A stretch of 64,000 nucleotides of DNA, from IMG/VR virus record IMGVR_UViG_3300028591_000113, positions 46,087 through 110,086 of that record; one strand, 5' to 3'. Origin of the DNA: a virus (lineage: Duplodnaviria; Heunggongvirae; Uroviricota; Caudoviricetes). Every line of letters begins with the position of its first letter. The first letter of the stretch is position 1. The position numbers and the translations under genes were made by a program. The notes beneath the pieces were generated by a model. The model was not told the origin of the DNA. It searched no databases and saw only the letters and a list, made by a program, of their open reading frames with translations. Shown piece by piece: positions 9,660 through 49,963 of this stretch.

Positions 9660-10808
9660 ACATTTACCATTTCAAGAAATCTACTATTAGCCTAAATTGT
9701 CGAGTTAGTTTTACAAACCACCAGTTGAGAGCTTGACCGCTCGTTGACCTCCGCAAGAGGTTGCTGGACGCATTTCCGCCGGTTTGAGGTCCCTATCGCA
9801 TGCATCCGAACAAAAGCGAACCTTGGCTTGATTAGTCACCCAGTAGTAGACTTGTATTCTAGAACCTATAAGATATTATTGAATAGTAGGTTTCTTGAAG
9901 TGGTAACACTTCTGTCTTATGTGGACCCCGTGCGCTAATGACGCGCATCGAGTGGGGGAATATCAGCGGGCCCCTGTAAGAAGCTGAATAGGACATTAAA
10001 CTTAATCGTCATTGTGCGGGCAGTCTCACGCACAGCAAGGAAATACCTTCCTGCTAGATAGACCAGACCTCTTCGCAAGTTGACGCGTAACGGGAACTTG
10101 CCGCCATACTGGTTGTAAAATGTAAGGGGATTTAGTTAGTTTCTACCCAGACCCGTGAAACTAATAAAGGTTGATGTCAGGTATAAGACTTAAACACCAA
10201 TAATAATGGGGATAAAAGAGTATGCGGCTGCAGACTGTCAGAATAACCCCATTATGCTGATAAGGTTTGGGGTACGCAATAGTAATGTTGCGACGGTCAA
10301 TAACCCTCGAGTTACCGGATAAGGAATATGTTGTGTAGTCAACTAAGGATACCGCTGAGGACTTGAAAAACCCCATTATGTGCCACCAGGAGACTGTATG
10401 ACCCGTATTCGAAAAGTAGGCTGGCAACTACAGGGTAAACTTAAAACCCACAATAAAGGATAAAGACCGTGTGGTCACCGTGGGACAGAACGACCCGAAA
10501 CTAGGGAACGGCAACGAACCCTAATGAGCGGGCACGACGAGGTAATGCGTTGCAGACAACCTTCACAGTAATGTGATGCTCGACGCGAGGTTTGCGGCTA
10601 TCCACCCGATAAAGCCGTGGGAGGCAACTGCCCAGGAAGGATAAGTGTTGAACGAATTCGGTAGTGCCCGCAGGGCGAAGAGTCCAGAAACCGGAGCCGC
10701 AACTCGGGGTTGGCTATTGCGAGTAGCAGGGTGCGGAGAATAGCCGAGGTAGGAAACAGGTTGATTTGCAGTTACGGTACCTGTATAAACCACTGACAAC
10801 TGCGATAT
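9660..10808 (+). ncRNA. about 1.15-kb ORF-free GC-rich region inside tRNA array; candidate large structured ncRNA (ROOL/GOLLD-like)
   Basis: No credible ORF, stops in all frames, GC far above coding neighbours, internal repeated modules (AACCCCATTATG at 10237 and 10369), flanked by tRNAs. Confidence 0.4.
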
Positions 10809-10884
10809 GGGGGTATAGCTCAATTGGGAGAGCAACTGCTTTGCAAGCAGAAGGTTGTGGGTTCGATTCCCATTACTTCCACCA
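10809..10884 (+). tRNA. tRNA-Ala (TGC) with G3-U70 identity pair
   Basis: Acceptor GGGGGTA/TACTTCC (G3-T70 wobble), anticodon loop TTTGCAA, T-stem GTGGG/CCCAT. Confidence 0.8.
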
Positions 10885-11812: not shown

Positions 11813-12203
11813 AATATACTCGTGTTGGTGCAATTAGTAGCATTCCAGCGGCACCAGGTATTAGACGATAAGACTAATACAATGACCGCGGGCGACGTAG
11901 GTGCAATTCCTATTTTACGAGTGCCGAACAGTTTATAATTGGTCGCAACTGGAACAGCGTGTCCAGCGCTGGCGATAATAATGGCTAAAAGACGAAAGCT
12001 CTGCCGCGCCAAATAGATGCCGTGTAACTCGGCTAGCAGAAACCATAAGAACACGAGGGGCTCCGTCTGCGAAAATAACTTTAGCCCCACCATGATGAAG
12101 ACTTATTGCTTATTCGGGAGTTTATGCGTTAATTTGCCCGTTATTGCTCGATACAGAGCCTGTGTATTAGGCGCATAAGTTGGTTCAATTCCAACATTCA
12201 TCA
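11813..12203 (+). other. structured non-coding stretch with tRNA-like fragments (T-arms GTAGG-TGCAATT-CCTAT and GTTGG-TTCAATT-CCAAC with CACCA end) but no canonical cloverleaf; possible intron-containing or degenerate tRNAs
   Basis: Two T-arm-like elements, acceptor-like pairings 107-113 nt apart, direct repeat GGTGCAATT x2. Confidence 0.25.
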
Positions 12204-12268
12204 CCAAAGATAATTGTCTAGGTGTGCGGCATAGACAAGAATAGCGCAATTCTCGAGCCGCACAATAT

Positions 12269-13056: not shown

Positions 13057-13070
13057 TAAGACAATAATTA

Positions 13071-13097
13071 GGTGGACTAGGTCCGCCTTTTTTGTTA
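13071..13097 (+). terminator. Rho-independent terminator after tRNA array (GGTGGAC-ta-GGTCCGCC + T6)
   Basis: Hairpin + TTTTTT, immediately followed by conserved upstream motif. Confidence 0.7.
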
Positions 13098-13133
13098 TAA
13101 TAATTATAGAAAAGTAAAAGAGGAATTATATTT

Positions 13134-14596: not shown

Positions 14597-14878
14597 ATGA
14601 AATACCAAGATATACCTTATAATAAAATGGCTTTTACGCCTGAAGAAGCAGAACAATGCGCAGATTTTGTTAAGTATTTAATGCAAATGAAAAGCCCAGA
14701 CCATTACAATGAAATATGTATTACTTCTGATGGCTATTGCACTATTGTTTGTTGGGTTCATAAACCACATGATAATTCCTACGGTGGTAGTTTTGAGTTC
14801 GTTGATGAAGACCAAGATATTTGGACTGATAAAGAAATCGACGAAATCGTCAAAGCCCGTATAGAAAACCAAAAATAA
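14597..14878 (+). CDS. hypothetical protein (93 aa)
   Basis: ORF. Confidence 0.55.
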   Translation: MKYQDIPYNKMAFTPEEAEQCADFVKYLMQMKSPDHYNEICITSDGYCTIVCWVHKPHDNSYGGSFEFVDEDQDIWTDKEIDEIVKARIENQK

Positions 14879-14880
14879 CT

Positions 14881-14909
14881 TGACAACGAGCTTTAATTAT
14901 CATATAATA
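14881..14909 (+). promoter_or_regulatory. consensus sigma70 promoter TTGACA-17nt-TATAAT
   Basis: Perfect hexamers at 14881-14886 and 14904-14909. Confidence 0.7.
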
Positions 14910-14915
14910 TAAATG

Positions 14916-15843
14916 ACTAGATAGGGATATTGTGCGCAGTATCCCGAGCCTATCCTTGTGGGTAGGTGACTGACAAGTTGACCGACAGGTCGTTAAACTG
15001 CTGCTCACATAGTCCATGCGGAGCTTAATTGAGAAGAGGACATTTGATACTAAAAGATAATCCGTGAAATCTCAAATGATGCGGTGTCATCCACTTAGGG
15101 TAAAACCTGAGGACCTATTACTTCCTTAATTAGGGTTGAGATATTGTAGCGGTCGGGGATCTTTGAATGAGAGTAGGGTTGGCGCGCTCTCAGGGTAACA
15201 ACTTAGTTTGTTTTGTCGGCGTAGAGACGTTAAACCTACTGCTACCAATCTGACCAACCGGTTGCGTCAGTGAAACCTAGGATAACATGGACCTAGCGAC
15301 TTGAGTATGCGTTTACGGCCCGGGGTTACCCGCGCGGCGCATGCTAGTGGTTCCCACCATTCGGTGCTGAGGGATTGATCACCCAACGCGGTCCAACGTG
15401 AAAGCCGAAGAAACGCGGGAGATTCCCGCCTAGTAAGGGTTTGGCTCTTACACCTGTGAAAAAATGAAGGGATCGTTCCCCTTACTGTCCAGTAACTCTG
15501 GGCGGTGTGCTGGTGCCCAGCCTTGTCAAGCCGCAGGTAAAAGGTCACAGTTGAGGTGTGACTGAATAGGTAATGGTCTAAAACCTGCCGAGTTTGGTAA
15601 ATGACAATTAACCCAACCTCATTCTTTAGTTTGTTGGTGTAATCTAGCAGAAAACCATCTAGCTTCGCAATGTGCTAAAATACTAGTCAAACATTGTTTG
15701 AGAGTCCCAGGGTTGAGAGTGAAAGTCTAGCCACTCTCGTAAAATCATAGGCCGATAAGGTCTCTGGGCAAATGGATAGAAAAGTACCCTAAAATTCTAT
15801 CCAACTATTTGAAAATTAAGGTGGACTATGTCCACCTTTTTTG
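14916..15843 (+). ncRNA. about 930-nt ORF-free GC-rich transcription unit (promoter to terminator); candidate large structured ncRNA
   Basis: Stops in all 3 frames throughout, GC about 48% vs about 36% coding, perfect promoter upstream and terminator AAGGTGGAC-tat-GTCCACCTT+T6 at 15818-15843. Confidence 0.5.
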
Positions 15844-15878
15844 TTATAATTATTATATAGAAAAGTAGAGGTATATAT

Positions 15879-16133
15879 ATGAGAAAGTTAACTAAAACTA
15901 TCAATCGCAGACGTAAAAATTACAAACCAACAATCGGCTTAACATCAAAAGACGGTAGTTACCGCAAAAGTGTTAATGCTACTGTTTATTATATTAAACT
16001 TCAAAAGAAAAGAGATGCCGAGGCTGAACGAGAAGCACGAAAATTTCTTATGAACTTCTTAGAAGAAAAGATGCCTAAATTTTTTGGTATGCTTAATGCG
16101 TTTGCTAACTTAGGCGACTGGATGTATTATTAA
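15879..16133 (+). CDS. basic hypothetical protein (84 aa)
   Basis: ORF after conserved upstream motif TTATAATTATTATATAGAAAAGTAGAGG. Confidence 0.55.
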   Translation: MRKLTKTINRRRKNYKPTIGLTSKDGSYRKSVNATVYYIKLQKKRDAEAEREARKFLMNFLEEKMPKFFGMLNAFANLGDWMYY

Positions 16134-16146
16134 AAAGGAATTAATT

Positions 16147-16662
16147 ATGCCAAATGAAAAGATAAAAGTTCTATTCTTAGATGTCGATGGAGTTCTAAAC
16201 TCTACCGCAGAACTTTTTGATGACCGCGCAATTAATCCGAAAAAATTAGAAATCCTTAAAACTATTATTGATAAGACAAATGCTAAGATAGTTTTAACTT
16301 CTACTTGGCGTTGTTTTGTTAATAAGTTAAGTGCTGTTATTGAGGCACTTGAAACTGTTAATTTAGAACTCTATGGCATTACTCGTGAAGGAGTTGCTAT
16401 GAAAGACTTCAAAAATACTCCTTGGGCTAATGTAAAACGTTGCCCTTCCTATATTTATGAAGATGATATAAATAACGATCGCGGGGCAGAGATTGCCTGG
16501 TGGATTTGGTGCAGAAGAGAAAAAATAGATAAGTTTGCCATCGTTGATGACGAAGATGTTGATATTCGTAAGTATTTCCCAAATAACATTGTGAAAACAG
16601 GATTTTCAACAGGGCTTACTTCAGAAGACGCGGCGAAAATAGTAAAGATACTGGAGGATTAA
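16147..16662 (+). CDS. HAD-superfamily phosphatase (DxDxV motif FLDVDGVLN)
   Basis: N-terminal motif I LFLDVDGVLN, motif II S/T (LTSTW), C-terminal acidic Asp cluster (VDDEDVD). Confidence 0.6.
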   Translation: MPNEKIKVLFLDVDGVLNSTAELFDDRAINPKKLEILKTIIDKTNAKIVLTSTWRCFVNKLSAVIEALETVNLELYGITREGVAMKDFKNTPWANVKRCPSYIYEDDINNDRGAEIAWWIWCRREKIDKFAIVDDEDVDIRKYFPNNIVKTGFSTGLTSEDAAKIVKILED

Positions 16663-16664
16663 CC

Positions 16665-17060
16665 ATGAGTATTTTAGACAGTGAATATTTTTATGATGTT
16701 TATTGTAGTAAATTAGCAGACGAATGTAATAGTCTTAAAGAGGCTTTATCTTGCTATTGCGAGGAATGTGGCAATGGTGCTGATGTTATTCGTTATTATG
16801 TGGAACGCCATGAAAAAGACGAAAACTTTGAAACAGAAGTTGAACTTTTAGGCTATCCAAAAATCGCGCAATTACTTGACATTTTATTGCCTACTAAGTA
16901 TGACATTATGAAACCTTGGTATAAACGTCAATGTCTCAGTTTACTCGGAGAAGACGATAAAGACTTAACTGCGCACGAAAAGCATTGGAAGCGCATTATT
17001 GCTAATATTTATGATTATTACAAAAAAGGTTTCGATAAAGTTGACGAAACTCTTGACTAA
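16665..17060 (+). CDS. hypothetical protein (131 aa)
   Basis: ORF. Confidence 0.55.
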   Translation: MSILDSEYFYDVYCSKLADECNSLKEALSCYCEECGNGADVIRYYVERHEKDENFETEVELLGYPKIAQLLDILLPTKYDIMKPWYKRQCLSLLGEDDKDLTAHEKHWKRIIANIYDYYKKGFDKVDETLD

Positions 17061-17248
17061 ACCCGAAAATTATTTTATAATACTTATAGAAAGATAAGAA
17101 AATATCTTTTATTAGTTGAAAGGAGAACTACGCTATGACAAAACTAATATCTAAACAATTTAGACTCAGTTGCCAACGCTCAATGAAGTGTATGTTTTCC
17201 TATGCTAGTAAGAGATAATTAGTTTTACCTAATACCACGATTAATTAT

Positions 17249-23548: not shown

Positions 23549-23577
23549 TTGACTTAGAGAGAATAATTTCATATAAT
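23549..23577 (+). promoter_or_regulatory. consensus sigma70 promoter TTGACT-17nt-TATAAT
   Basis: -35 at 23549-23554, -10 at 23572-23577. Confidence 0.65.
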
Positions 23578-23583
23578 AATTAT

Positions 23584-24454
23584 GCTCACAACGAAAAAGT
23601 ATTATCGAGAGATAAGAAAAAGTAGTTCGAGATACGAGAAACAGGGAAACCTGAAACTCCGCTGGCAAACGAAAATGCTGCCTTGGGCAAGCATAATGGC
23701 CCACCTTGTTCTTTGAAAATTATTTTGCAGCTTGGTGAAGATGGTCTTGCGGACCGCCAAGCAGTGACTCAAGAATGAAAGTGTCATGGGATACTGTGAC
23801 ATAAGTAAGAAACCTAGATAGTGATAGATAGGTAAACCTACTCATAAGAAAAGTAAGGATTGAGCCATGTGGGCAATATGTTAACTTGAACTCTAAACAA
23901 TACTTAAACTCGGCGGTGACAAGAGGCTACGCAGTAACAATTAAGAATGCGCCCCACCGCGAGATACTAGCGTGAGAAACTAGTATCTGGGTTCTCAAAG
24001 GAAACCGATGTCTTGATGTCTAGAAATAGACTATAACCGAGTAAAGTAGTGCGAGTAGCCGTACGACAGGAAGATAGAAAATGGCTTTAATTTGCAAGTA
24101 TGATCGCAAATCCTACACAGAATCTGAAGCTCGGTGAAAGTTGATGAGTAATGACCTCATCTTGTGTTAGTGTCTTAGGACACACTTCAGGAAGTGTAAG
24201 ATCGCAACTTACCCTCAGACCTGCGGTGCAATGTGTGAAACAAGAGTAGTTAATAAGTGTTGTATCATGAATAAAAGTGGGCAAAATGATTTTTAAAGAA
24301 CAAGGTAACTTGTTCAACTCACCTAACAATAGACCCCGTTAATAGTAAGGGATGGACCTCTGGAGCGAGAGCATTACAGGTTGAAGGTAGACGTGGCCCT
24401 TACCGATAGTGAGTTAAATATTAAGCATAGCGTGTCGAAAGGCACGCTTTTTTG
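23584..24454 (+). ncRNA. about 870-nt ORF-free GC-rich transcription unit; candidate large structured ncRNA
   Basis: Promoter upstream, terminator AGCGTG-tcgaaagg-CACGCT+T5 at 24429-24454, no plausible ORF on either strand (only spurious short ones). Confidence 0.45.
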
Positions 24455-28713: not shown

Positions 28714-28869
28714 TATATACTAAAATTCATTTTTGCCGAAACGTGACAAAATAACTATATTATATATGTATCAGTATTAAAGGCAAAATTACAGTAATGT
28801 AATGACGCAAAACTATAGGATCCTCCGACGGATAGCCAGTTACCTGACCAATCCTTTGGAGGTTTTTAT

Positions 28870-39354: not shown

Positions 39355-40965
39355 ATGGGAAAACCTTATATTTATTATATTTCATCAAATAAAACACCTA
39401 ATATTATGTATATTGGTCAATCGATGGGTAATGACGGACGTTATGCTCGTGTTTTAAGTCACTTTTCTGGTTTATATCACTATAATAAAAATGGTGCTTA
39501 TGTTAATACACAAGGCAATGCAATTTCAGAAGGTACTCCATTGGTTGATTGATTAAAAGGCATAACATTAGATTCAGTGGAGGTTCAAATTTTTGAAGGT
39601 CCCGATTTCGGAATCCCACAAAACGTATGAATTGAATTTTGAAGTCAATGAGCAACAAGTCCGAATTTTAAAGACAAACTACCTGGCAATCTTGTAGAAC
39701 AAAAGCAACAAGCCTTAGATATTTTTAATAAACTAAATGATGAACAAAAATTAAATGCCGCAGAAATTATACATATTTATAATGCAAAAAAACATGGACA
39801 AATTTTAGTCCAAACTCAAATGGGTGGTCAAAATCTTAATTTATTTAAGCGTGGTAGTAATATTGTATTAAATAGAGAAATGTCACCAACTCAAATGCAA
39901 ACTCTTTTAGATGCTCATACAGGATCGATTGAAAAGATGCAACAAATTTTTGATGAAATGTTCCATAAATATGTATTAAATAATCCTCTATATATTGAAC
40001 GAATTAGTGATGCAAAAATTTGGACATCATTGGAATCTAAAAATACTTCTAGCGCTGGATATAAAATGTTGCGCAGTATTACTGATGATTTTTTACAAGA
40101 ACCTCAATATGGTAGTGTTTCTCGCTTAGATGCTATTTTAAATGAAGTTGCCGATGAGTGTGGACATGAAAATTACTTTAGAGTTTCATGAGGTGAAAAA
40201 TTACCAGAAAATCGTCGTCCTACTTTTTACCGTCAAAAGCGAAATGATAGCTATGATACTTTAATTGATGCATTAACTTCACAATTAAAAAGTAAAGCAA
40301 AGACTATTAATCAGAATAAAAATGATAAAGACATCTCTACAATTCTAAAAGACCTTATTGAGAATGGTCAAATTAATGTTAGTGTAGGTACCATTATGGA
40401 CATAAAACTTTTAATAAGTTATAATGGTTTAAGTTCTTTTAATGCAACTGGAAGTTTTATTGATATATCATCTAACTTAAAAATGATGTCTTATTACTAT
40501 TTTGCACATTGGGCTCAGCAATATTTTAATGAAAATACTTTTTCTTGAGGTCGCTCTAGATGGTCCGACAGTGAAGGCAATCGCTATGCGCGAATTAATG
40601 GCAAATTATGTATAAATTATATTTGATTAAAATACCAAGAAGAAGGAATTATTAACGGATATACTGAAAATTATGAAACCTTTAGAACTACTTTTGGACG
40701 CCAAATGTTAACACTGTATACTAAAAATCGTGGTTCAATATCTGGTAATCCGCTAGTCATGGAAGAAGTTTTTAATTTAAATGATACAACAGACATTCGC
40801 AAAGCCGGTGTATTCGATGTACCAAACATTGGCATCGAAGACGACCGAATCGTTTATTTAGCCTATTTCTTTTCTGACGCTACATATGATTATATGTCAC
40901 GTATTTTAACAGGAGAAGTAAGTGAAGATGATGCGGCTACTGTTGCGAATGTAAAATATTATTAA
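39355..40965 (+). CDS. large hypothetical protein (536 aa, about 10 TGA-Trp) with N-terminal GIY-YIG-like motif
   Basis: Three standard-code ORF pieces (39355, 39820, 40705) are in one frame joined by TGA codons; N-terminus YIYYISSN...YIGQS...R...H. Confidence 0.5.
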
Positions 40966-40975
40966 AGGAGATTTT

Positions 40976-41545
40976 ATGGTCGATTTTTTAAGACCAGTCC
41001 AACTGGGCTGATACAAACTTAATGATGCGGCAGTAGTGCCGACTAAAACCGAAAATAATGCAGGTTTTGATATTTATACAACAGAAACCGATATTACCTT
41101 ACAACCGCAAGAACACAGACTATTTAAAACTGATTTAGCAGTAGTGCCAGAAGAAGGTTGATGGTTACTTGTAAAAGATCGCGGTTCTACTGGTAGCAAA
41201 GGCATCCATGTTCATTGCGGCGTCATCGACAACAACTATAGAGGAGAAATATTTATTTGTTTAAATAATGATAACTATTATCCTGTAAAGTTTACCAATA
41301 ACGAAGAACCTGGATTACATACTCATAAAGAAAAGGTTCACAACACTGTGGGCGAAAGTTCCGCTTATACTTTGGTTGAGATTGAAGTTATTGATTATTT
41401 AGTTTATCCTACATCCAAGGCGATTGCACAAATCATTCCAATTTTACAACCAGTAGTAGAAAGTAAGGTATTAAGTAATGCGGAATGGGAAACCTATAAG
41501 AATACAGACCGCGGCGACGGAAAGTTAGGTAGTAGCGGAAAATAG
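40976..41545 (+). CDS. dut: dUTP pyrophosphatase (dUTPase) with internal insertion
   Basis: Motifs AGFDIY, KDRGSTGSKG, GVIDNNYRGEI, C-terminal RGDGKLGSSG; 3 TGA-Trp. Confidence 0.7.
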
Positions 41546-41722
41546 GTTGACAATTAAATAATACATTAGTATAATATATTTATCATATGAGGCGGCGTTA
41601 TACTTATTTCGTATGAAGGAAACGCTGGGCACACAAGATAAGCGCCATTAATTGTGGTGCTTTTTTTGTTGACAAAGACCAAAATCGTCTTTATAATATG
41701 ATTAGAATGAAAGGAGTATTCT

Positions 41723-42007
41723 ATGTACTTTACAGAATTAGCAGAATACGTTGGCGGTTTAGATACCTTCTTAGATAAATTTGAAGTTAAAAGCGCCATG
41801 AATGAATCTGGCAAATTAGTCATTTTAGAAACAAAAGAAACTTACATCTATGAAGATGAAGGTGATGCCGATAAAAAGATTAATGAAGCCCGCCAAGACA
41901 TCGGTTTCCTTGAAGCCAAAAAGAAATTCAAACAAGGTAAAGCCAATAAGAACGGTGAAATTACTCGTCCAGATACTTGGACAGTTGTCATTAAATTAAG
42001 TCACTAA
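41723..42007 (+). CDS. hypothetical protein (94 aa)
   Basis: ORF with AAGGAG RBS. Confidence 0.5.
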   Translation: MYFTELAEYVGGLDTFLDKFEVKSAMNESGKLVILETKETYIYEDEGDADKKINEARQDIGFLEAKKKFKQGKANKNGEITRPDTWTVVIKLSH

Positions 42008-42282
42008 TGGAAATCAAAATCCAACATACCATGTATATGGATGTAACATTTATAGGTACTCCTGAAGAATGTTTTGAAATATATAAATGGTATGACCAAT
42101 ACAAAACAGGCAAGACAAATGATAGAATTATCAAAGCTGTAATTAACATAATTCAAGAAATGCCATATGAAAGGGCGCTTGAAATGTGTCAAAATATGCA
42201 TCTTGATAAAGATTATGATTTGGAAACTATGTCTACTGATGAATTAAAAGCCCTTCTTATTGACAAAATCACAACAAAATAA
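42007..42282 (+). CDS. hypothetical protein (91 aa)
   Basis: ORF. Confidence 0.5.
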   Translation: MEIKIQHTMYMDVTFIGTPEECFEIYKWYDQYKTGKTNDRIIKAVINIIQEMPYERALEMCQNMHLDKDYDLETMSTDELKALLIDKITTK

Positions 42283-42284
42283 TT

Positions 42285-42638
42285 ATGACACGACCATTGT
42301 CCGGCATATACAAAATTACCAATACTAAAAACAATAAAGTCTATGTCGGACAATCGCAAAATGTCTATGAGCGAGAATCCGAACATTTTCTTGCACTTAG
42401 ACGAGGCAGACATCCAAACAAACTAATGCAAAAAGATTGGAATAAAGATAATCATGGCTTTAGGTTTGATGTTATAGAGTTTGTTCCGCTTAAAGATTTA
42501 AATGAGCGCGAAAAATACTGGATCGATAAATTGGGCACTATGGAGCCGCATGGTTATAACCAAGACTGAGTTCCATATAAAAGAAAAGAACCAAAGAAAC
42601 CTGCTTATAAACAAAAACATTACAGGAGGACAAGATAA
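42285..42638 (+). CDS. GIY-YIG homing-endonuclease-like protein
   Basis: GIYKITN...KVYVGQS...RESEH motif; one TGA-Trp extends ORF to 117 aa. Confidence 0.7.
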
Positions 42639-42842
42639 TGGAAGGTTATCATGCCTGTTGATGCGCACTTCCAGCAATAAGAGGTAATACTGACTGTTGC
42701 CAGGGATGCGCAAATAATCCTTGAAAAGATAAAAACATTCTAGATGAATGAAAAAATTTTAATATTGATGAAATAAAAAATGGTCGTATGGTTGTTGAGT
42801 ATGATAAAAATGGCTCAATAATTAAAATTACATATTACAATT

Positions 42843-42939
42843 AGGGGTGTGGCGTAATGGTAGCGCAGCGGTCTTCAAAACCGTAAAGATTCCGTGTCCA
42901 AAGCGGTAGGTGCGGGTTCGACTCCTGTCACCCCTGCCA
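42843..42939 (+). tRNA. tRNA with UCA anticodon (reads UGA), 97 nt, long variable arm, selC-like T-arm GGTTCGACTCCTGT; suppressor/tRNA-Sec-like
   Basis: Acceptor AGGGGTG/CACCCCT perfect + G73 + CCA, anticodon stem GCGGT/ACCGT loop CTTCAAA (U33, A37), about 25-nt extra arm. Confidence 0.65.
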
Positions 42940-42963
42940 GTTTTATAAAGAAAGGATTTTAAT

Positions 42964-43788
42964 ATGAAAAACTATGCATATGTTAGTGTATTAGGAAATA
43001 ATGAGTTTCTTAACGCAGCAATAGTTTTAATATACTCTTGAAAAAGAACTAAATCACAATATCCTTTTTATTTAATTATAACTACAGAAATTACAGAGCA
43101 AAATAAGGAAATCTTACGTAGTATTGGATATTCATTAATTGAAATTGAACCATACTGTCCTGAAATTTATAAAAAACAATTAGCAGAATGTACCAATCTT
43201 GATGCGATAAATATTCATGGTAGAAATACTAATATAGGTTGAAAACACTATTTTAACATGCTTTATTGTTGAAGTTTAGTTCAATTTGATAAAATATGTT
43301 GAGTAGATATTGATGTCATATTTATCCAAAATATAGATGATTTATTTAATCAGTATGATGATTTTGCTATACAATATCATGACCATTATAAGTTTGATGT
43401 TAATTTTATTATTTTAAAACCAAATCAGACTGTTTTTAAACAATTACTTGATTTTGCAGAAAAATGCCCGCCTAGAGAGGATTTTCAGGTGCTTGATGGT
43501 TATCAAATTCTTACATACTTTTTTAAAAATGAATGTAAACAAGAGAGTAGTTATATACGTTATATAGTATATGATGTGCGCTGATTGGGCACTCTTAATT
43601 ATGATTATTGACGTTGCTATAATAAAATAAGAGTTATACATTTTGGTGGCATAAAACCTTGAATGTTATCCGATATAACATGTAGAGATATATACCAAGA
43701 CTATTGATGAAAAGAGTATCTTCATATATTAAATTATGGCATTGAAGATATTAACAATAAAATGGGACTACAGTTAGAGGAGTATTAA
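42964..43788 (+). CDS. glycosyltransferase family 8 (glycogenin-like) paralog 1; 9 TGA-Trp, 0 TGG
   Basis: Alignment by eye to glycogenin: YCW-SLVQFDKICW-VDIDVIFIQNIDDLF (DxD) and HFGGIKPW; TGA sits at conserved Trp positions. Confidence 0.7.
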
Positions 43789-43792
43789 TATA

Positions 43793-44611
43793 ATGAATAA
43801 TATTTATTTATCAGTATTCAATCATAATGAACAAATTTATCCTCTAATTACTTTAATGTATTCTTGGAAACAAACAAATTCAATATATCCGTATTACTTA
43901 TTAATCACTCCCAATATTAACAAAAAGCATAGAAAAATAATAAAATGATTAGGTTTTAAAATTATAGAAATAGATACATGAGCATCTTTAGATGAGGGTA
44001 TTAACTGTAGTGAAATAGAAAAACAAGATATAATTGCTAAATTTAAAGTATTTGATTTAATACAATTTGATAAAATTTTAATGTTAGATTGTGATATTTT
44101 GTTTTTACATAATACTGACTATTTATTCGAATATCCAACTATAACGAGCGTTTCTTGGCAATCTAAAGAGTTCCGAAGTGAGTGCTTGTTATTAGAACCA
44201 AATCATGAACTATATTTAAGTTTAATTAATTATGTTAATCAATATGAACATTTTAAAGATTATTCTTCTATTTTAAAAGATTTTTTCTGAGATTTAATAT
44301 TTAGACGAGACCATTTGTTTGAACGAACTTCTTTTTATAATTTATTAGACTGTAATAATGACAATGTTAATTGAATTAATGAATGAATAAAAATTGATAT
44401 TATTTATATGACTAATGGAAACAAGCCATGAAAAACTGCAACTACAATAACTGACAGCTGAAGTAAAGATTGATATACTGCAAGAATGCTATATCAACAC
44501 TACTTAAACACATTAAATTATGGAATTGATGATCTCCGTCATAAAAAAATAATAACAAAAGAAGATTTATTAAAACCCGAAGAAAAATATAATGAAATTA
44601 AAAAAGATTAA
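43793..44611 (+). CDS. glycosyltransferase family 8 paralog 2
   Basis: Same architecture (LDCDILFLHNTDYLF DxD motif), frame intact only with TGA=Trp. Confidence 0.65.
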
Positions 44612-44637
44612 TATGATTAATGAAAGGATCCTTCTAT

Positions 44638-45480
44638 ATGAATAATTATGCCTATGTCAGTTTAATTGCTACAAACAATTATATTGGTGCGGCAGTTACA
44701 ATGATGGAATCTTGAAGACAATTAAACTCTAAGTATCCATTTTATTTGATGGTAACTGACAACATTACAGATGAAAATCGAATCATTTTACAAATATTAG
44801 GATTTAAATTAATAGATATAAAAGAATGACGCCCAGAGTCTTATGATGCTCAAAGAAGCACCATTACAGATGAGCAAGTTTTAATATGGCATGGAACCAA
44901 TGATGTCGAAACTCGTGGATGGCGCCATACTTTTTCTAAATTACTAGTGTGAAACCTAACACAATTTGATAAAGTTTGCTGACTTGATTTGGATATTATT
45001 TTCTTTCGCAATATAGATGATGTTTTTGATTTTCCTACTCCAGCTTGATTAGGACCAGATATTAATGGACATAGTGCATCGCAAATTTTTGTAATAGAAC
45101 CCAACACTGTTGTGTTTAATAAACTTATTAAGTTTGCTGAACACTTCCCAAATGATGAAAAAAAACTTTACACAGATGAAGAAGTATTGCACAGTTTTTT
45201 CCAACAAGAAGTTGAGTATAATAAAATTATTCCACTATATTTTGTATATAATTGAAACAGATGCGGTATTACTTGTGAATTTATAGAAAATTCATTAAAA
45301 ATTCGTGGCGTTCATATGACTGGCACAGAGAAGCCATGATTAAGAGGTCGTAGTTTTGTTTCACATTATAGTGTTGGATGGTATCCCGCATATTTTATTT
45401 GAAATTATTATATATCTTTATACAATGCAGGAGCGAGTAAGTTAAATCAAAAAGGGTTTAATTTACCTATTATAGATTAA
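44638..45480 (+). CDS. glycosyltransferase family 8 paralog 3
   Basis: LDLDIIFFRNIDDVF, HMTGTEKPW motifs. Confidence 0.7.
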
Positions 45481-45481
45481 T

Positions 45482-46354
45482 ATGAAGAATTATGTATATA
45501 TGTCTTTATTTAGCCATAATGAGTATATTTATCCTTTGTTGGCTTTAATGTATTCTTGAAAAAAGACGCAATCAAAATATCCTTATTATTTATTAGTTAC
45601 GCCAAACATTTCTGCGGAAAACAAAGAAATAGTGCAATCTATTGGTTTTCATATCATTGAAACAGAGGAATGGCAACCTCAAAGTTATAAAATGATGTGC
45701 GCGCAAATTTCTAAGCAAGTAAAAGATTTTTGGCAATGACATGGTGCTACAGATGAAGAAAAAGGATGGCGCCATACTTTTACAAAATTTAAAGCCTTTG
45801 GACTGACTCAATTTGACAAAATATTATTATTAGACTGTGATATTTTAATCTTAAAGAATGTAGATGACCTCTTTGAATATCCTTCTATTACAAGTGTTTC
45901 TTGGTGAAAGGGCAATTTTTGTAGTGGATGCTTATTATTTGAACCCAATCAAAAATTATGGGAAAAACTAGAAGATTTTTCTAATGAATATGTTAGAACC
46001 AATCAAGGTTTTCCTTATGATGATTATATGATATTAAAAGATTTCTTTACAGAAGATATAGTTAATAATCGTGGTCATTTAATTCCTAAAACCGATTTCT
46101 TTAATTTATTTGATTTCAAAGATAATCCTGAAAAAAGCGCCGCTTTATGACAAGATATTAGAATTATACATATGACTGGTCAAACCAAACCATGGCGACG
46201 CGGGAAACCTGTTAATATAGATATGCGCAATGAATGAGGATTTGTTCTGTTGTGGCATGCTTATTATTTACAATTATTAAATAATGCCATTAAAGAATTA
46301 CAACAACATGGTTTTAATTCTTTATCTGAAATAGATTATGAAAAGTGAGATTAA
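45482..46354 (+). CDS. glycosyltransferase family 8 paralog 4
   Basis: LDCDILILKNVDDLF, HMTGQTKPW motifs. Confidence 0.7.
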
Positions 46355-46357
46355 AAT

Positions 46358-47240
46358 ATGAAAAATTATGCTTATGTAAGTTTATTAGCAACTGATAATT
46401 ATATTGGCGCCGCCATAGTTTTAATGGAGTGTTGAAGAGAATTAAAATCTCCTTATCCATTTTACATGATGGTTACAGAAAATATTTCACAAGAAAAAAT
46501 TGAGATATTAGAAGTATTAGGCTTTAAAATTATTCATATTAATGAATGGCAACCAACTGAATATGTTAATATGAAAGAGAGCTTAAAAGATGATAAAGAA
46601 GCTATTCATTGGCATGGAACAAATCCTTTAAGTAATGGTTGGCAACATATCTTTTCTAAATTATTAATATGAAATCTTACTCAATTTGACAAAGTGTGTT
46701 GAGTTGATTTAGATATTATTTTCTTTCGCAACATTGATGATGTATTCGATTTACCTGGGTCAACATTTTTAGAACCAGATGCAAATGATTATGTATCTTC
46801 ACAATTAATTGTGGCAGAACCAAATGAACATTTATTTAAAGCGTTAAAAGAATATGGTGATAGATTTATTCCAACAGAAGAAACCCATCATAGTATTTTT
46901 ACAGATGAAGATATTATTCACTCATTCTTTCATGATGAAATTGCAAATTGTAAAAAATTTATTCCAATTACATATAGTTATGCATGGAACAGATGCTCTA
47001 TTGCTTTAGAGTTTATGCAATTAAGTCATCAATTACATGGTGTTCATATTACTGGCCCAGCAAAACCATGACTTTTAGGAAATGATTATATTCGTAATTT
47101 TTCGTCTCAATGGTATCCAGCAAAAGCAATTTGAAGTTATTACGTTTCTTGTTATAACGTAGGAGTTAAAAAACTTATGGCAAAAGGCTTTAAAAATTTA
47201 ACTTTATGACCAGAAGGAGACGAATATGACCTCAAAGTTT
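46358..47240 (+). CDS. glycosyltransferase family 8 paralog 5
   Basis: VDLDIIFFRNIDDVF, HITGPAKPW motifs; C-terminus reads through TGA into start region of next gene. Confidence 0.65.
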
Positions 47241-48374
47241 AGAATCCATGTTTTAGGTTTACCACATACAAAAACACACTTAGATTATGTTGCTTGCGCT
47301 TTTACACAGAAGATTTTATTATTCTGTAAAATGATGCACCAGCGTGGACATTACATTATTCACTATGGCGTAGAGGGATCAAATCCAGAGTGCGATGAGA
47401 ATGTTGTTGTTTTAAGTGATGAAGAATTTACAAAAGAGTTCGGAGTAAATAAAAAACATACCGACCTTTATAAATTTAATACTGATAGTGAAGCAGTTCG
47501 TATTTATACTGAAAACTGTATTAAAGAAATCAGCAAAAGAAAACAAAAAAATGATTTTATTTTACCATTCTGGGGATGTGGCCAACAAGCAATTTGTGAG
47601 TCATTCCCTGATATGCTTACCGTAGAGCCTGGTATTGGCTATATCGGCGCCGCATTTGCACCATTTAAGATTTATGAATCTTACTTCATGTTAAGTTATG
47701 ATGCAGGTCGTACTAATAATTATTTATTACCATCATTTTATGATGTAGTAATTCCTCCATTTTTTGATTTAGATGAATTTGAATATAATCCAAATGACCG
47801 CACTAAAGGTCCAGATCGCTATTTCGCTTTTTTAGGACGCATTGGCGACCATAAAGGAGTTAATATTGCTATACAAGTGTGTAAGGTATTAGGTGTGAAA
47901 TTAAAAATAGGCGGTCAGCCTTGTGATGAATATAAGAATTTTAATTGACCAGATTGTGTAGAATATATTGGTCATTGTGATGTGCAACAGAGAAAAGAAT
48001 TGTTTAAAAATGCAATAGGTACTTTTGTTGCTTCAAGATATATGGAACCTTTTGGTTATGTTCAAATTGAATCTTTATTGTGCGGAACTCCTATTATTAC
48101 TACAGATTGAGGCGCTTTCCCAGAAGTAAACATTGAAGGAGTGACTGGTTATAGATGTCAGACTTTTAATGACTTTCTAGCAGCAGCACTTCATCTACTT
48201 AATCGAGATATTGATTATATAAACTGTCGTAAGCGCGGTGAAGACTATCGTTTTGAGAAAATTGCGCCGCTTTATGAAAAACACTTCCAAGATATATTAA
48301 ATCTGACTTTGAAATCAGGTTGGTATACAATTAGTCCAGAAATTGAAGAAAAAATTAACAAATTAAAGGAGTAA
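47226..48374 (+). CDS. GT-B glycosyltransferase (GT4-like, EX7E motif) paralog A
   Basis: C-terminal [24 protein letters not shown] motif typical of GT4; two standard ORF pieces joined by TGA. Confidence 0.6.
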
Positions 48375-48376
48375 AT

Positions 48377-49519
48377 ATGAAATTTCGTTTCCATGTTTTA
48401 AGTATTCCACATACCCGCACCAATTTAGACTATACTGCTTGCGCTTATACACAAAAGGTATTTAAGTTCTGTAAGATGATGCATCAACGTGGACATTATA
48501 TTATTCATTACGGTGTAGAAGGCTCAAATCCAGAATGCGATGAAAATGTCACTGTAGTTAGTAATGAAATATATGACCGTGTATATGGTAATCATGATTA
48601 TCACAAAAACTGGTTTAAGTTTGATGAAAATGACGAATGTTATCAGACTTTTTATAAAAATACTATTGAAGAAATTAATAAACGTAAACAACCAGGAGAT
48701 TTTGTTTTAGCATTTTGGGGTCCAGGTAATAAGCCAATTTGCGACGCGCTTTCTGATATGATTATTGTAGAACCTGGAATTGGATATTGCAATAGTTGGA
48801 CACAATTTAGAGCTTATGAATCTTATGCTATTATGCACGCAGACCAAGGACGCGATGCAATGCTTTATGCTAATCCTAAATGGTATTTCACTGTAATTCC
48901 AAATTATTTTGATGTGGCTGATTTTGACTGGACTAAAACATATGAAGAACGTAAAAAAGATCCTTATTTCTTATTTTTAGGGCGCGTTTATGACGGCAAA
49001 GGATTAAATATTGCTATACAAATTTGTAAGCAACTTGGTATTAAACTGAAGGTTGCGGGGCAATTAACACCAGAATACGAAAATTTCCCATGAGACGAAC
49101 AGATTGAATTTGTTGGTTATGCTGACAAAGATAAACGTAATGAGTTAATGGGAGGTGCATTAGCATCTATTGTTGCTTCTACTTATGTCGAACCTTTTGG
49201 AGGTGTTCAGGTAGAAAATCTATTATGCGGAACTCCAACAATTACTACTGATTGGGGTGCTTTTGTAGAGAATAACATTGAAGGCGTTACTGGTTATAGA
49301 TGTCGCACATTTGACGATTTCATTAATGCGGCATTAAATTGTTATGAAGGTAAAATAAAATACGAAAATTGTCGTAAACAAGGCGAAAAATTTTCTTTAG
49401 AAAATATCGCTCTTAAATATGAAAAATTCTTTCAAGATATTTGGAATATTTATAATGGTGATGGATGGTATCAATTTACCGAGCAAACAAAAGAACGCTT
49501 AAAGAATTTTAAAAAATAG
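48377..49519 (+). CDS. GT-B glycosyltransferase (GT4-like) paralog B
   Basis: YVEPFGGVQVENLLCGTPTITTDW; about 60% identical by eye to paralog A. Confidence 0.6.
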
Positions 49520-49595
49520 TTTAGTTCGGGGTGCCTCAGCCCGATATATACACTGCGCAAAGGCGCGCATTATTATTACGGAGGTAGAAAGTAAT

Positions 49596-49868
49596 ATGAA
49601 GTATTATTCAGAACAAACAAAGAAACTCTATGAATCTCAAGAAGATTTAGAAAAAGCCGAAAAAGACTTTGAAGAAAAGAAAGCGGTTGCATTAAAAAAG
49701 AAAGAGGCTCGTGAAGCCAGAGCAAAAGAAGTTGCAGATGCTTATAATAAGTATGTTGAACTTTTTAATGCTTTTGTTAAAGATTATGGTTACTATGTAG
49801 ATTATCGTAAGTCTGCTGGTGATGAAATGCTTAGAGTCTTTAGTACTCTTTTAGATTGGCCATTTTAA
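49596..49868 (+). CDS. small Lys/Glu-rich coiled-coil protein (90 aa)
   Basis: ORF; terminator 49890-49919. Confidence 0.45.
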   Translation: MKYYSEQTKKLYESQEDLEKAEKDFEEKKAVALKKKEAREARAKEVADAYNKYVELFNAFVKDYGYYVDYRKSAGDEMLRVFSTLLDWPF

Positions 49869-49963
49869 TTAAATAAATATTTACTGAGACAAGAGTCGAG
49901 AAATCGACTCTTTTAATTTGACATAAAATAAGTAGAATAGTAGATTAATAATGAGGTAATAGT

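Follow-up and report, generated by a model that had tools for sequence, protein, structure and literature searches.

What occupies the stretch of about 1 kb (positions 14881-15843) for which no gene is called in the genome of a tRNA-rich phage of the class Caudoviricetes? The sequence examined, referred to below as the window, comprises 64,000 nucleotides of the IMG/VR record IMGVR_UViG_3300028591_000113 (positions 46,087 to 110,086). An earlier reading of the letters (hereafter the original prediction) proposed a large structured non-coding RNA (ncRNA) with its own promoter and terminator and named ROOL, GOLLD, HEARO, OLE and raiA as families to be considered. To our knowledge, very few bacterial or phage ncRNAs longer than 500 nt have a conserved structure, namely GOLLD, ROOL, OLE, raiA, and HEARO. 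Each of these has grown into a research topic. The element described here evolves as non-coding sequence, its pairing is maintained by compensatory changes on the plus strand, its promoter and terminator are conserved, and no Rfam family matches it. Very probably, the element is an independent gene encoding a highly structured ncRNA of large size (0.7-0.93 kb), and no model of Rfam 15 covers the class of this RNA.

The promoter of the element (14880-14908) scores 12 out of 12 against TTGACA-17-TATAAT, exactly as originally predicted, and is kept in all three homologous contigs described below: L016 (TTGACA/TATACT), L017, and L011. The window contains 11 sites with at most one mismatch to this consensus, every one of them on the plus strand, as compared to 1.3 expected (8-fold enrichment). 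This promoter class is far above chance and confined to one strand and is, therefore, a promoter type really used by the phage. Transcription of the element would start at approximately 14915. At the other end, the predicted hairpin was confirmed as a GC-rich stem of 9 pairs (15818-15838) with the loop TAT, followed by TTTTGTT; the predicted run of six T's results only if the tail is taken to include two T's that belong to the 9-bp stem. The terminator is conserved in L016 and L017, and its stem in L017 carries a compensatory G-C to A-U change. The GC content of the element is 45.7% (14881-15843) and reaches 51.9% in the core (15213-15626), versus 34.2-34.7% in the flanking genes. The difference of 11 points is close to the 12 points given in the original prediction; the whole window has a GC content of 35.6%. 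The tRNA genes of the window comprise 33 located between 8.3 and 21 kb and one more at 42.8 kb.

The terminator hairpin is also found away from the element, with a near-copy at 13070-13088 and further ones in relatives that lack the element. A promoter-like sequence, TGGACT-17-TATAAT (15822-15850), overlaps the terminator of the ncRNA and would drive the downstream genes. This arrangement, i.e. the hairpin GGTGGAC...GTCC[A/G]CC overlapping TGGACT-17-TATAAT, recurs in the window (13070-13101 and 15818-15850) and is also found between genes in relatives (L016 at ~7218, L144, and L150). The cassette looks like a standard module boundary of this phage group. The features of the element are listed in Table 1.

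Table 1. Positions of the ncRNA element, its signals and predicted structural parts in the window, and of its full-length homologs in two related contigs.
Feature	Position	Strand	Remarks
Sigma-70-type promoter	14880..14908	+	-35 TTGACA 14880-14885, 17-nt spacer, -10 TATAAT 14903-14908
ncRNA transcript, ~930 nt	14915..15844	+	Bounded by promoter and terminator; ends inferred
Hairpin H1, invariant loop UGCG	14924-14932/14937-14945	+	G-C to A-U double changes at two different pairs in L016/L017
Second 5' hairpin CCUAUCC/GGGUAGG	14949-14955/14960-14966	+	Conserved in alignment
Variable insertion, ~190 nt	~14968..15157	+	Not in L016/L017; first ~80 nt common to L011; boundaries approximate
Hairpin H5	15168-15177/15183-15192 (region 15158..15212)	+	4 double-change pairs
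Linker hairpin, variable length	15193-15212	+	Site of insertion of unrelated sequence (at least 400 nt) in L011
Core domain A, multi-helix (H6-H13)	15213..15411	+	Closed by 15213-15220/15404-15411
Hairpin loop ACCGGU, self-complementary, near-invariant	15257-15262	+	Domain A; extra 5' C in L017
Invariant 10-nt loop AUAACAUGGA	15282-15291	+	Domain A
Core domain B (H14-H22)	15415..15620	+	
Fully invariant hairpin	15433-15451	+	Domain B
A-rich junction, invariant or near-invariant	15459-15466	+	Domain B
Invariant loop GUUGAGG	15550-15556	+	Domain B
Segment missing from L017, ~35 nt	15627-15660	+	
Conserved 3' hairpin (H23/H24)	15667..15697	+	3' of the ~35-nt segment
3' tail, weakly conserved, few consensus pairs	15698..15817	+	Extra ~100 nt in L016
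Intrinsic terminator AAGGUGGAC-UAU-GUCCACCUU, then U-run	15818..15844	+	
Homolog in L016	8829-9706		~880 nt
Homolog in L017	1200-1911		~712 nt

The window phage was recovered in 12 or more contigs of ENA, JGI, and Logan assemblies, with an identical element and no gene called in the gap of ~1 kb. Two contigs with homologs were reached via the HAD_SAK_2 gene, which is located two ORFs downstream of the ncRNA element. In both, L016 (124 kb, HAD protein 78% identical) and L017 (4 kb, 83%), the gene-free gap at the equivalent position holds a homolog with ~84% nucleotide identity. The core shares 86% identity with that of L016, which is above the values of every flanking gene (66-82%), and identity in the 3' tail (alignment columns 741-960) is 47-74%. 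Contig L011 (JGI 3300031992, Ga0310694_10021919) contains a partial variant at 4465-4875. It has the first ~180 nt (5') in common with the element, followed by at least 400 nt of unrelated sequence at a linker that is short in the other copies, and the contig stops before the core resumes. A search of this insertion against Rfam gave no match. L011 and L005, a contig of the window type, originate from the same sample (JGI 3300031992). Several metagenome assemblies break inside the variable 5' region.

The element is missing at the equivalent site in L146, L144/L145, and L138-L141, where the neighbouring ORF is 86%, 73%, and 45-70% identical, respectively. Homologs of the adjacent 84-aa ORF (orf84) were followed, and relatives at 86% identity or less had no such RNA upstream; one contig in this set, that of P0105, begins 64 nt upstream of its orf84-homolog gene. 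Given its absence from the close relatives L146, L144, and L145, the element is dispensable for this phage group. Each genome fragment carries one copy. No match to the element was found by blastn and tblastn among GenBank phages (50,697 records), and no true homolog was retrieved from IMG/VR with two flanking proteins, four DNA patterns and the alignment of spurious ORFs (see below) as queries; 119 IMG/VR matches to a 15-mer were chance hits, as revealed by nhmmer screening. Scans of JGI metagenomes and GTDB genomes with the single pattern GTCAGTGAAANNNNNGATAACATGG gave only a JGI contig of the same phage (L147) and one chance match located inside a coding gene of Bacteroides. Thus, the RNA family appears to be narrowly distributed, with one further lineage apparently revealed by the spurious ORF calls P0127 and P0129.

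A consensus structure was computed with RNAalifold from the three full-length copies, which diverge by ~15-30%; L011 is partial. About 27 local helices were predicted. Since the structure was derived from the same sequences, the following values are given with their controls. For the 169 predicted pairs in 27 helices, 96.8% of alignment cells pair, as compared to 36-42% after sliding the partners by 1-3 columns. Pairs changed on both sides number 26, versus 10.1 ± 2.4 in column shuffles (none of 500 reached 26) and 1-7 in slid alignments, and 16 of the 27 helices contain at least one of them. The identical procedure was applied to four flanking genes. The ratio of compensatory to broken pairs was 17:6 in the RNA core and 27:91 in the four genes taken together (2:20, 6:33, 8:20, and 11:18 for the individual genes; Fisher p = 4.8e-6). 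The consensus fold is more stable on the plus strand than on the reverse complement (-132.7 versus -105.0 kcal/mol) and has fewer broken pairs (6 versus 19). Folding of the single sequence gave a modest z-score of -2.8, and -4.5 for the reverse strand, and is uninformative on strand. The original prediction had named a lack of covariation as an argument against itself; compensatory changes exceed the controls, and together with the conservation of the element and its non-coding substitutions they bear out a large structured ncRNA with its own promoter.

The two core domains were also examined separately. In domain A (50 pairs), 97.3% of cells are paired versus 31-40% after sliding, and 4 double-change pairs were found versus 1.7. 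In domain B (61 pairs), 97.8% of cells are paired and 10 pairs are changed on both sides, as compared to 3.6 ± 1.5 in shuffles (none of 500 reached the observed value) and 0-1 after sliding. Additional compensatory variants come from the 5' hairpins of the partial copy in L011, including H5 (ATAGAG/CTCTAT, ATAGGG/CCCTAT, and ATAGGA/TCCTAT in the copies compared). Covariance models were built for domain A (R1) and domain B (R2). R1 scored 217-247 bits in the three copies only, and R2 scored 210-257 bits; over 150 kb of related contigs, including a 2.8-kb gene-free stretch in L018, both models returned only self-matches. Two long-range RNAalifold helices, one joining the 5' end with the U-run behind the terminator and the other joining 15193-96 with the 3' tail, lacked support and were left out of the structure. 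The palindrome TGCGCA of the first hairpin was also discarded as a kissing loop; the consensus fold places most of it in the stem and leaves a loop of 4 nt.

The survey of the window with Rfam 15 identified 32 tRNAs, a c-di-GMP-I riboswitch and a full-length ROOL RNA but nothing at the ncRNA element at gathering score. A permissive cmscan of 14800-15900 (E <= 10) also failed to detect GOLLD, ROOL, HEARO, OLE, raiA, introns, RNase P, or tmRNA, and the models of 6S RNA and rRNA did not match either. The matches obtained at this threshold were terminator-like ones at 15766-15872 (sraA, L20_leader, and others) and two weak chance matches in the core (PyrR205 and asX2), all far below gathering scores. 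No Rfam family matched the element in its homologs from L011, L016, and L017, the element shares no similarity with the ROOL copy or with any other part of the window, and no description of such an RNA was found in the literature. The affiliation with one of the five families proposed originally is therefore not supported. The phage does carry a ROOL RNA, at a different locus: it lies at 23707-24300 on the plus strand (full-length, 196 bits), with a near-consensus promoter (23549-23577) about 130 nt upstream. Its counterpart in L016 is located at 16617-17192 (213 bits).

The readings that compete with a new RNA class differ in what they make of the gap. One of them is a decayed or recoded protein gene, read from the minus strand or with TGA as sense, in which the high GC content would be due to foreign origin. 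The prediction that stops occur in every frame was correct for the plus strand, with 20-34 stops per frame and a longest ORF of 33 aa; on the minus strand, a stop-free stretch of 135 codons is present (15270-15674), which extends to 182 codons with TGA recoded, and TGA apparently serves as a sense codon in this phage at 40-52 kb. However, 6% of composition-preserving shuffles reach 135 codons, and the frame is lost in L016 and L017, whose longest stop-free stretches measure 88 and 83 codons and lie at other positions. Because of the use of TGA as sense elsewhere in this phage, the test of frame conservation was repeated with each stop codon recoded, and no conserved frame was found among the homologs. 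Core substitutions in the three homolog comparisons show no codon periodicity (21/19/17, 27/14/17, and 33/27/24 per codon phase; p = 0.81, 0.09, and 0.47), whereas flanking genes on the same contigs display an excess at the third position (HAD, 21/21/50, p = 1e-4; orf163, 29/25/67, p = 2e-6). Indels in the core are mostly of 1-2 nt and break the frames, and none of the frames tested matched Pfam or PHROG. An exhaustive search of the minus-strand translation against 1.84 billion proteins did give two small predicted proteins, P0127 (E = 7e-8) and P0129, which have a common N-terminus and then diverge by a frameshift; contigs of this lineage come from ENA and Logan and are up to 41 kb long. The window translation '...PSFFH' and the P0129 segment 'PFIFSQV' are two readings of the same nucleotides, the block CCTTCATTTTTTCACAGGTG, which is the reverse complement of an invariant RNA block. 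One nucleotide block read in different frames means that conservation is at the nucleotide and not at the protein level. P0127 and P0129 thus appear to be spurious ORF calls that run across the RNA gene of a second and more distant lineage, and in these shifting frames we see no sign of the pseudogene with protein homology that the original prediction had listed against itself. The nucleotides of this lineage, as deduced from codons, contain one forced A-U to G-C compensatory pair (15547-15559), which is too little for independent evidence. The protein-gene reading is largely refuted, and we consider it extremely unlikely.

The remaining alternatives accept an RNA but assign it differently. 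A divergent GOLLD RNA or a ROOL paralog outside the reach of narrow Rfam covariance models would fit the phage tRNA island and the length of 700-930 nt; conservation of the 3' two-thirds, combined with variation in the 5' region and the linkers, also agrees with the published architecture of GOLLD (PMC12286853). Against this assignment, the permissive cmscan of the 1.1-kb region and the searches of the homologs gave no GOLLD or ROOL at E <= 10, while an equivalent search finds the true ROOL of this phage at 196 bits, a copy to which the element has no sequence similarity. Such a relationship is quite unlikely. A long riboswitch-like cis leader or attenuator, which would control orf84 and HAD_SAK_2 by termination or read-through, is suggested by the position of the element directly upstream of these genes on one strand, by the terminator at its end and by the occurrence of riboswitches in this phage (c-di-GMP-I aptamer at 28772-28847). 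Yet a cis-leader role is very unlikely, because L146, L144/L145, and L138-L141 have homologs of orf84 and HAD but lack the element, because the promoter-like site over the terminator can drive the downstream genes independently and because the segment next to the terminator is the least conserved part; also, 700-930 nt with ~27 helices is far beyond known leaders. The presence or absence of the element at one locus, next to an ORF that is 73-86% identical in relatives, and its organization as a self-contained module with modular internal insertions could point to a mobile-element RNA or its remnant, such as an ORF-less group II intron, an IS-associated guide RNA or a retron-like ncRNA. This origin is hardly likely at all: Rfam models of group I and II introns, HEARO/omega RNA and other mobile-element RNAs do not match, genes for reverse transcriptase, transposase or endonuclease are not adjacent, the element has one copy per genome fragment, and its own promoter and terminator speak against an intron.

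The new RNA does have features in common with known large RNAs. GOLLD RNAs occur in phages and prophages near tRNA islands, exceed 700-800 nt and possess many helices, a conserved 3' part and a variable 5' region and linkers (PMC12286853). The element resembles GOLLD (RF01998) in its tRNA-rich phage setting (33 tRNAs, 8.3-21 kb), its length of 712-930 nt and its variable 5' insertions. It differs in that the GOLLD covariance model gives no match at gathering score or at E <= 10, in having its own promoter and terminator instead of being embedded in a tRNA transcript, and in its very narrow distribution. With ROOL (RF03087), it shares the rumen source and the character of an independently transcribed, large structured RNA that is phage-borne and located near tRNA arrays; the ROOL of this phage also has a near-consensus promoter ~130 nt upstream. 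The differences are a separate locus, the lack of a match to the ROOL model and a length greater by about 50%. The window and L016 each carry both ROOL and the element, so that neither stands in for the other. OLE, HEARO, and raiA are likewise large RNAs with ornate, covariation-supported multi-helix structures, but OLE and raiA are chromosomal and HEARO is IS-linked, their characteristic partner genes are absent near the element and their Rfam models do not match it. A location in a tRNA island, the length and a variable 5' region are common to several classes and do not establish membership. By the membership tests, the element belongs to none of the large RNA families described so far, although GOLLD and ROOL are RNAs of a similar kind. 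Over the three full sequences, it displays the generic features of a structured ncRNA gene, namely an excess of compensatory changes, non-coding substitutions and its own signals. With few sequences and a narrow distribution, it is at present a lead rather than an established family.

Several other features of this phage group were recorded. A block of 1.15 kb with 49% GC (9660-10808, plus strand) is located exactly between tRNA-Thr, which ends at 9659, and tRNA-Ala, which starts at 10809; with such exact flanks, tRNA processing would excise the block. It is conserved in L016 (4665-5785, 72-79% identity) with modular indels, and RNAalifold applied to both copies predicts 229 pairs, of which 27 are changed on both sides. 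The block has no Rfam match at E <= 0.1 and no similarity to the element at 14915-15844, and is a candidate for a second unclassified large structured RNA. With it, the number of distinct large RNAs in this phage clade may rise to three. Another conserved non-coding block (7291-8023, plus strand; ~82% identity to L016 2234-3160) starts with a perfect TTGACA-17-TATAAT (7304-7332) upstream of the first tRNA (8297) and could be a leader for the transcript of the tRNA array or a further ncRNA. Plus-strand stretches without an ORF of at least 60 aa occur at 1-2946 and 11813-12268 (GC 39% and 46%); within them, 2294-2665 is 71% identical to L018 12574-12954 and 12092-12265 is 95% identical to L016 6748-6922. 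In L018, a more distant phage (HAD protein 43% identical), 2.8 kb without a called gene (7232-10001; GC 0.42-0.48 versus ~0.30) lie directly upstream of HAD_SAK_2. This stretch contains no tRNA and no match to Rfam, R1, or R2, and might encode large, unrelated RNAs in a comparable position. The c-di-GMP-I aptamer of the window (plus strand, 58.8 bits) is located upstream of a 191-aa ORF without a Pfam match, and another is present in the related contig L140 (1911-1987), directly 3' of the orf84 homolog. In the bins from 40 to 52 kb, the coverage of the plus strand by open frames is 0.14-0.38 with the standard code and 0.85-1.0 with TGA recoded, and a 97-nt tRNA with the anticodon UCA, labelled SeC by ARAGORN, is encoded at 42843-42939. 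TGA seems to be a sense codon in this part of the genome (~40000-52000), where 'ORF-free' calls made with the standard code are unreliable.

As to the mode of action of the new RNA, we propose that it is transcribed from the consensus sigma-70 promoter, ended by the intrinsic terminator and folded into ~27 helices. Its predicted two-domain core, the 5' hairpins, H5 and the 3' hairpin are kept, peripheral linkers vary freely in length and content, and its carriers would form a narrow clade of AT-rich, tRNA-rich rumen or gut phages reading TGA as sense. From the niche of ROOL and GOLLD, we infer that it may act in trans as a folded RNA during infection and not as a cis regulator. The genes near the element are ORFans, except for the one encoding a HAD domain of the 'Swiss Army Knife' RNA-repair type (HAD_SAK_2), a neighbour that is a weak hint of an RNA-metabolism context. 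GOLLD and ROOL reportedly form RNA-only nanocages, a 14-mer in the case of GOLLD and a closed cage in that of ROOL. By analogy, the RNA might fold into a compact particle and self-associate, although we regard self-association as rather doubtful. The near-invariant, self-complementary hairpin loop ACCGGU would be a candidate kissing-loop contact; the occurrence of one 6-nt palindromic loop among ~20 loops is roughly at chance level. A self-associated RNA might sequester or scaffold a translation-related or tRNA-related partner.

An unrelated RNA of the size of GOLLD and ROOL, residing in the niche of ROOL and in the same genome, suggests that phage tRNA islands harbour a wider repertoire of giant RNAs. 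A bolder proposal, which combines a third giant 'ornate' phage RNA class beside GOLLD and ROOL with RNA-only quaternary assembly, possibly through an ACCGGU kissing loop, and with a hotspot for multiple RNAs, is speculative and, taken as a whole, improbable in our view. If it were true, TGA-recoded rumen phages would be such a hotspot, in which several large RNAs jointly take part in the takeover of translation or tRNAs. With two or three large RNAs per phage and relatives that lack one of them, this phage group offers a natural system for asking what these RNAs do.
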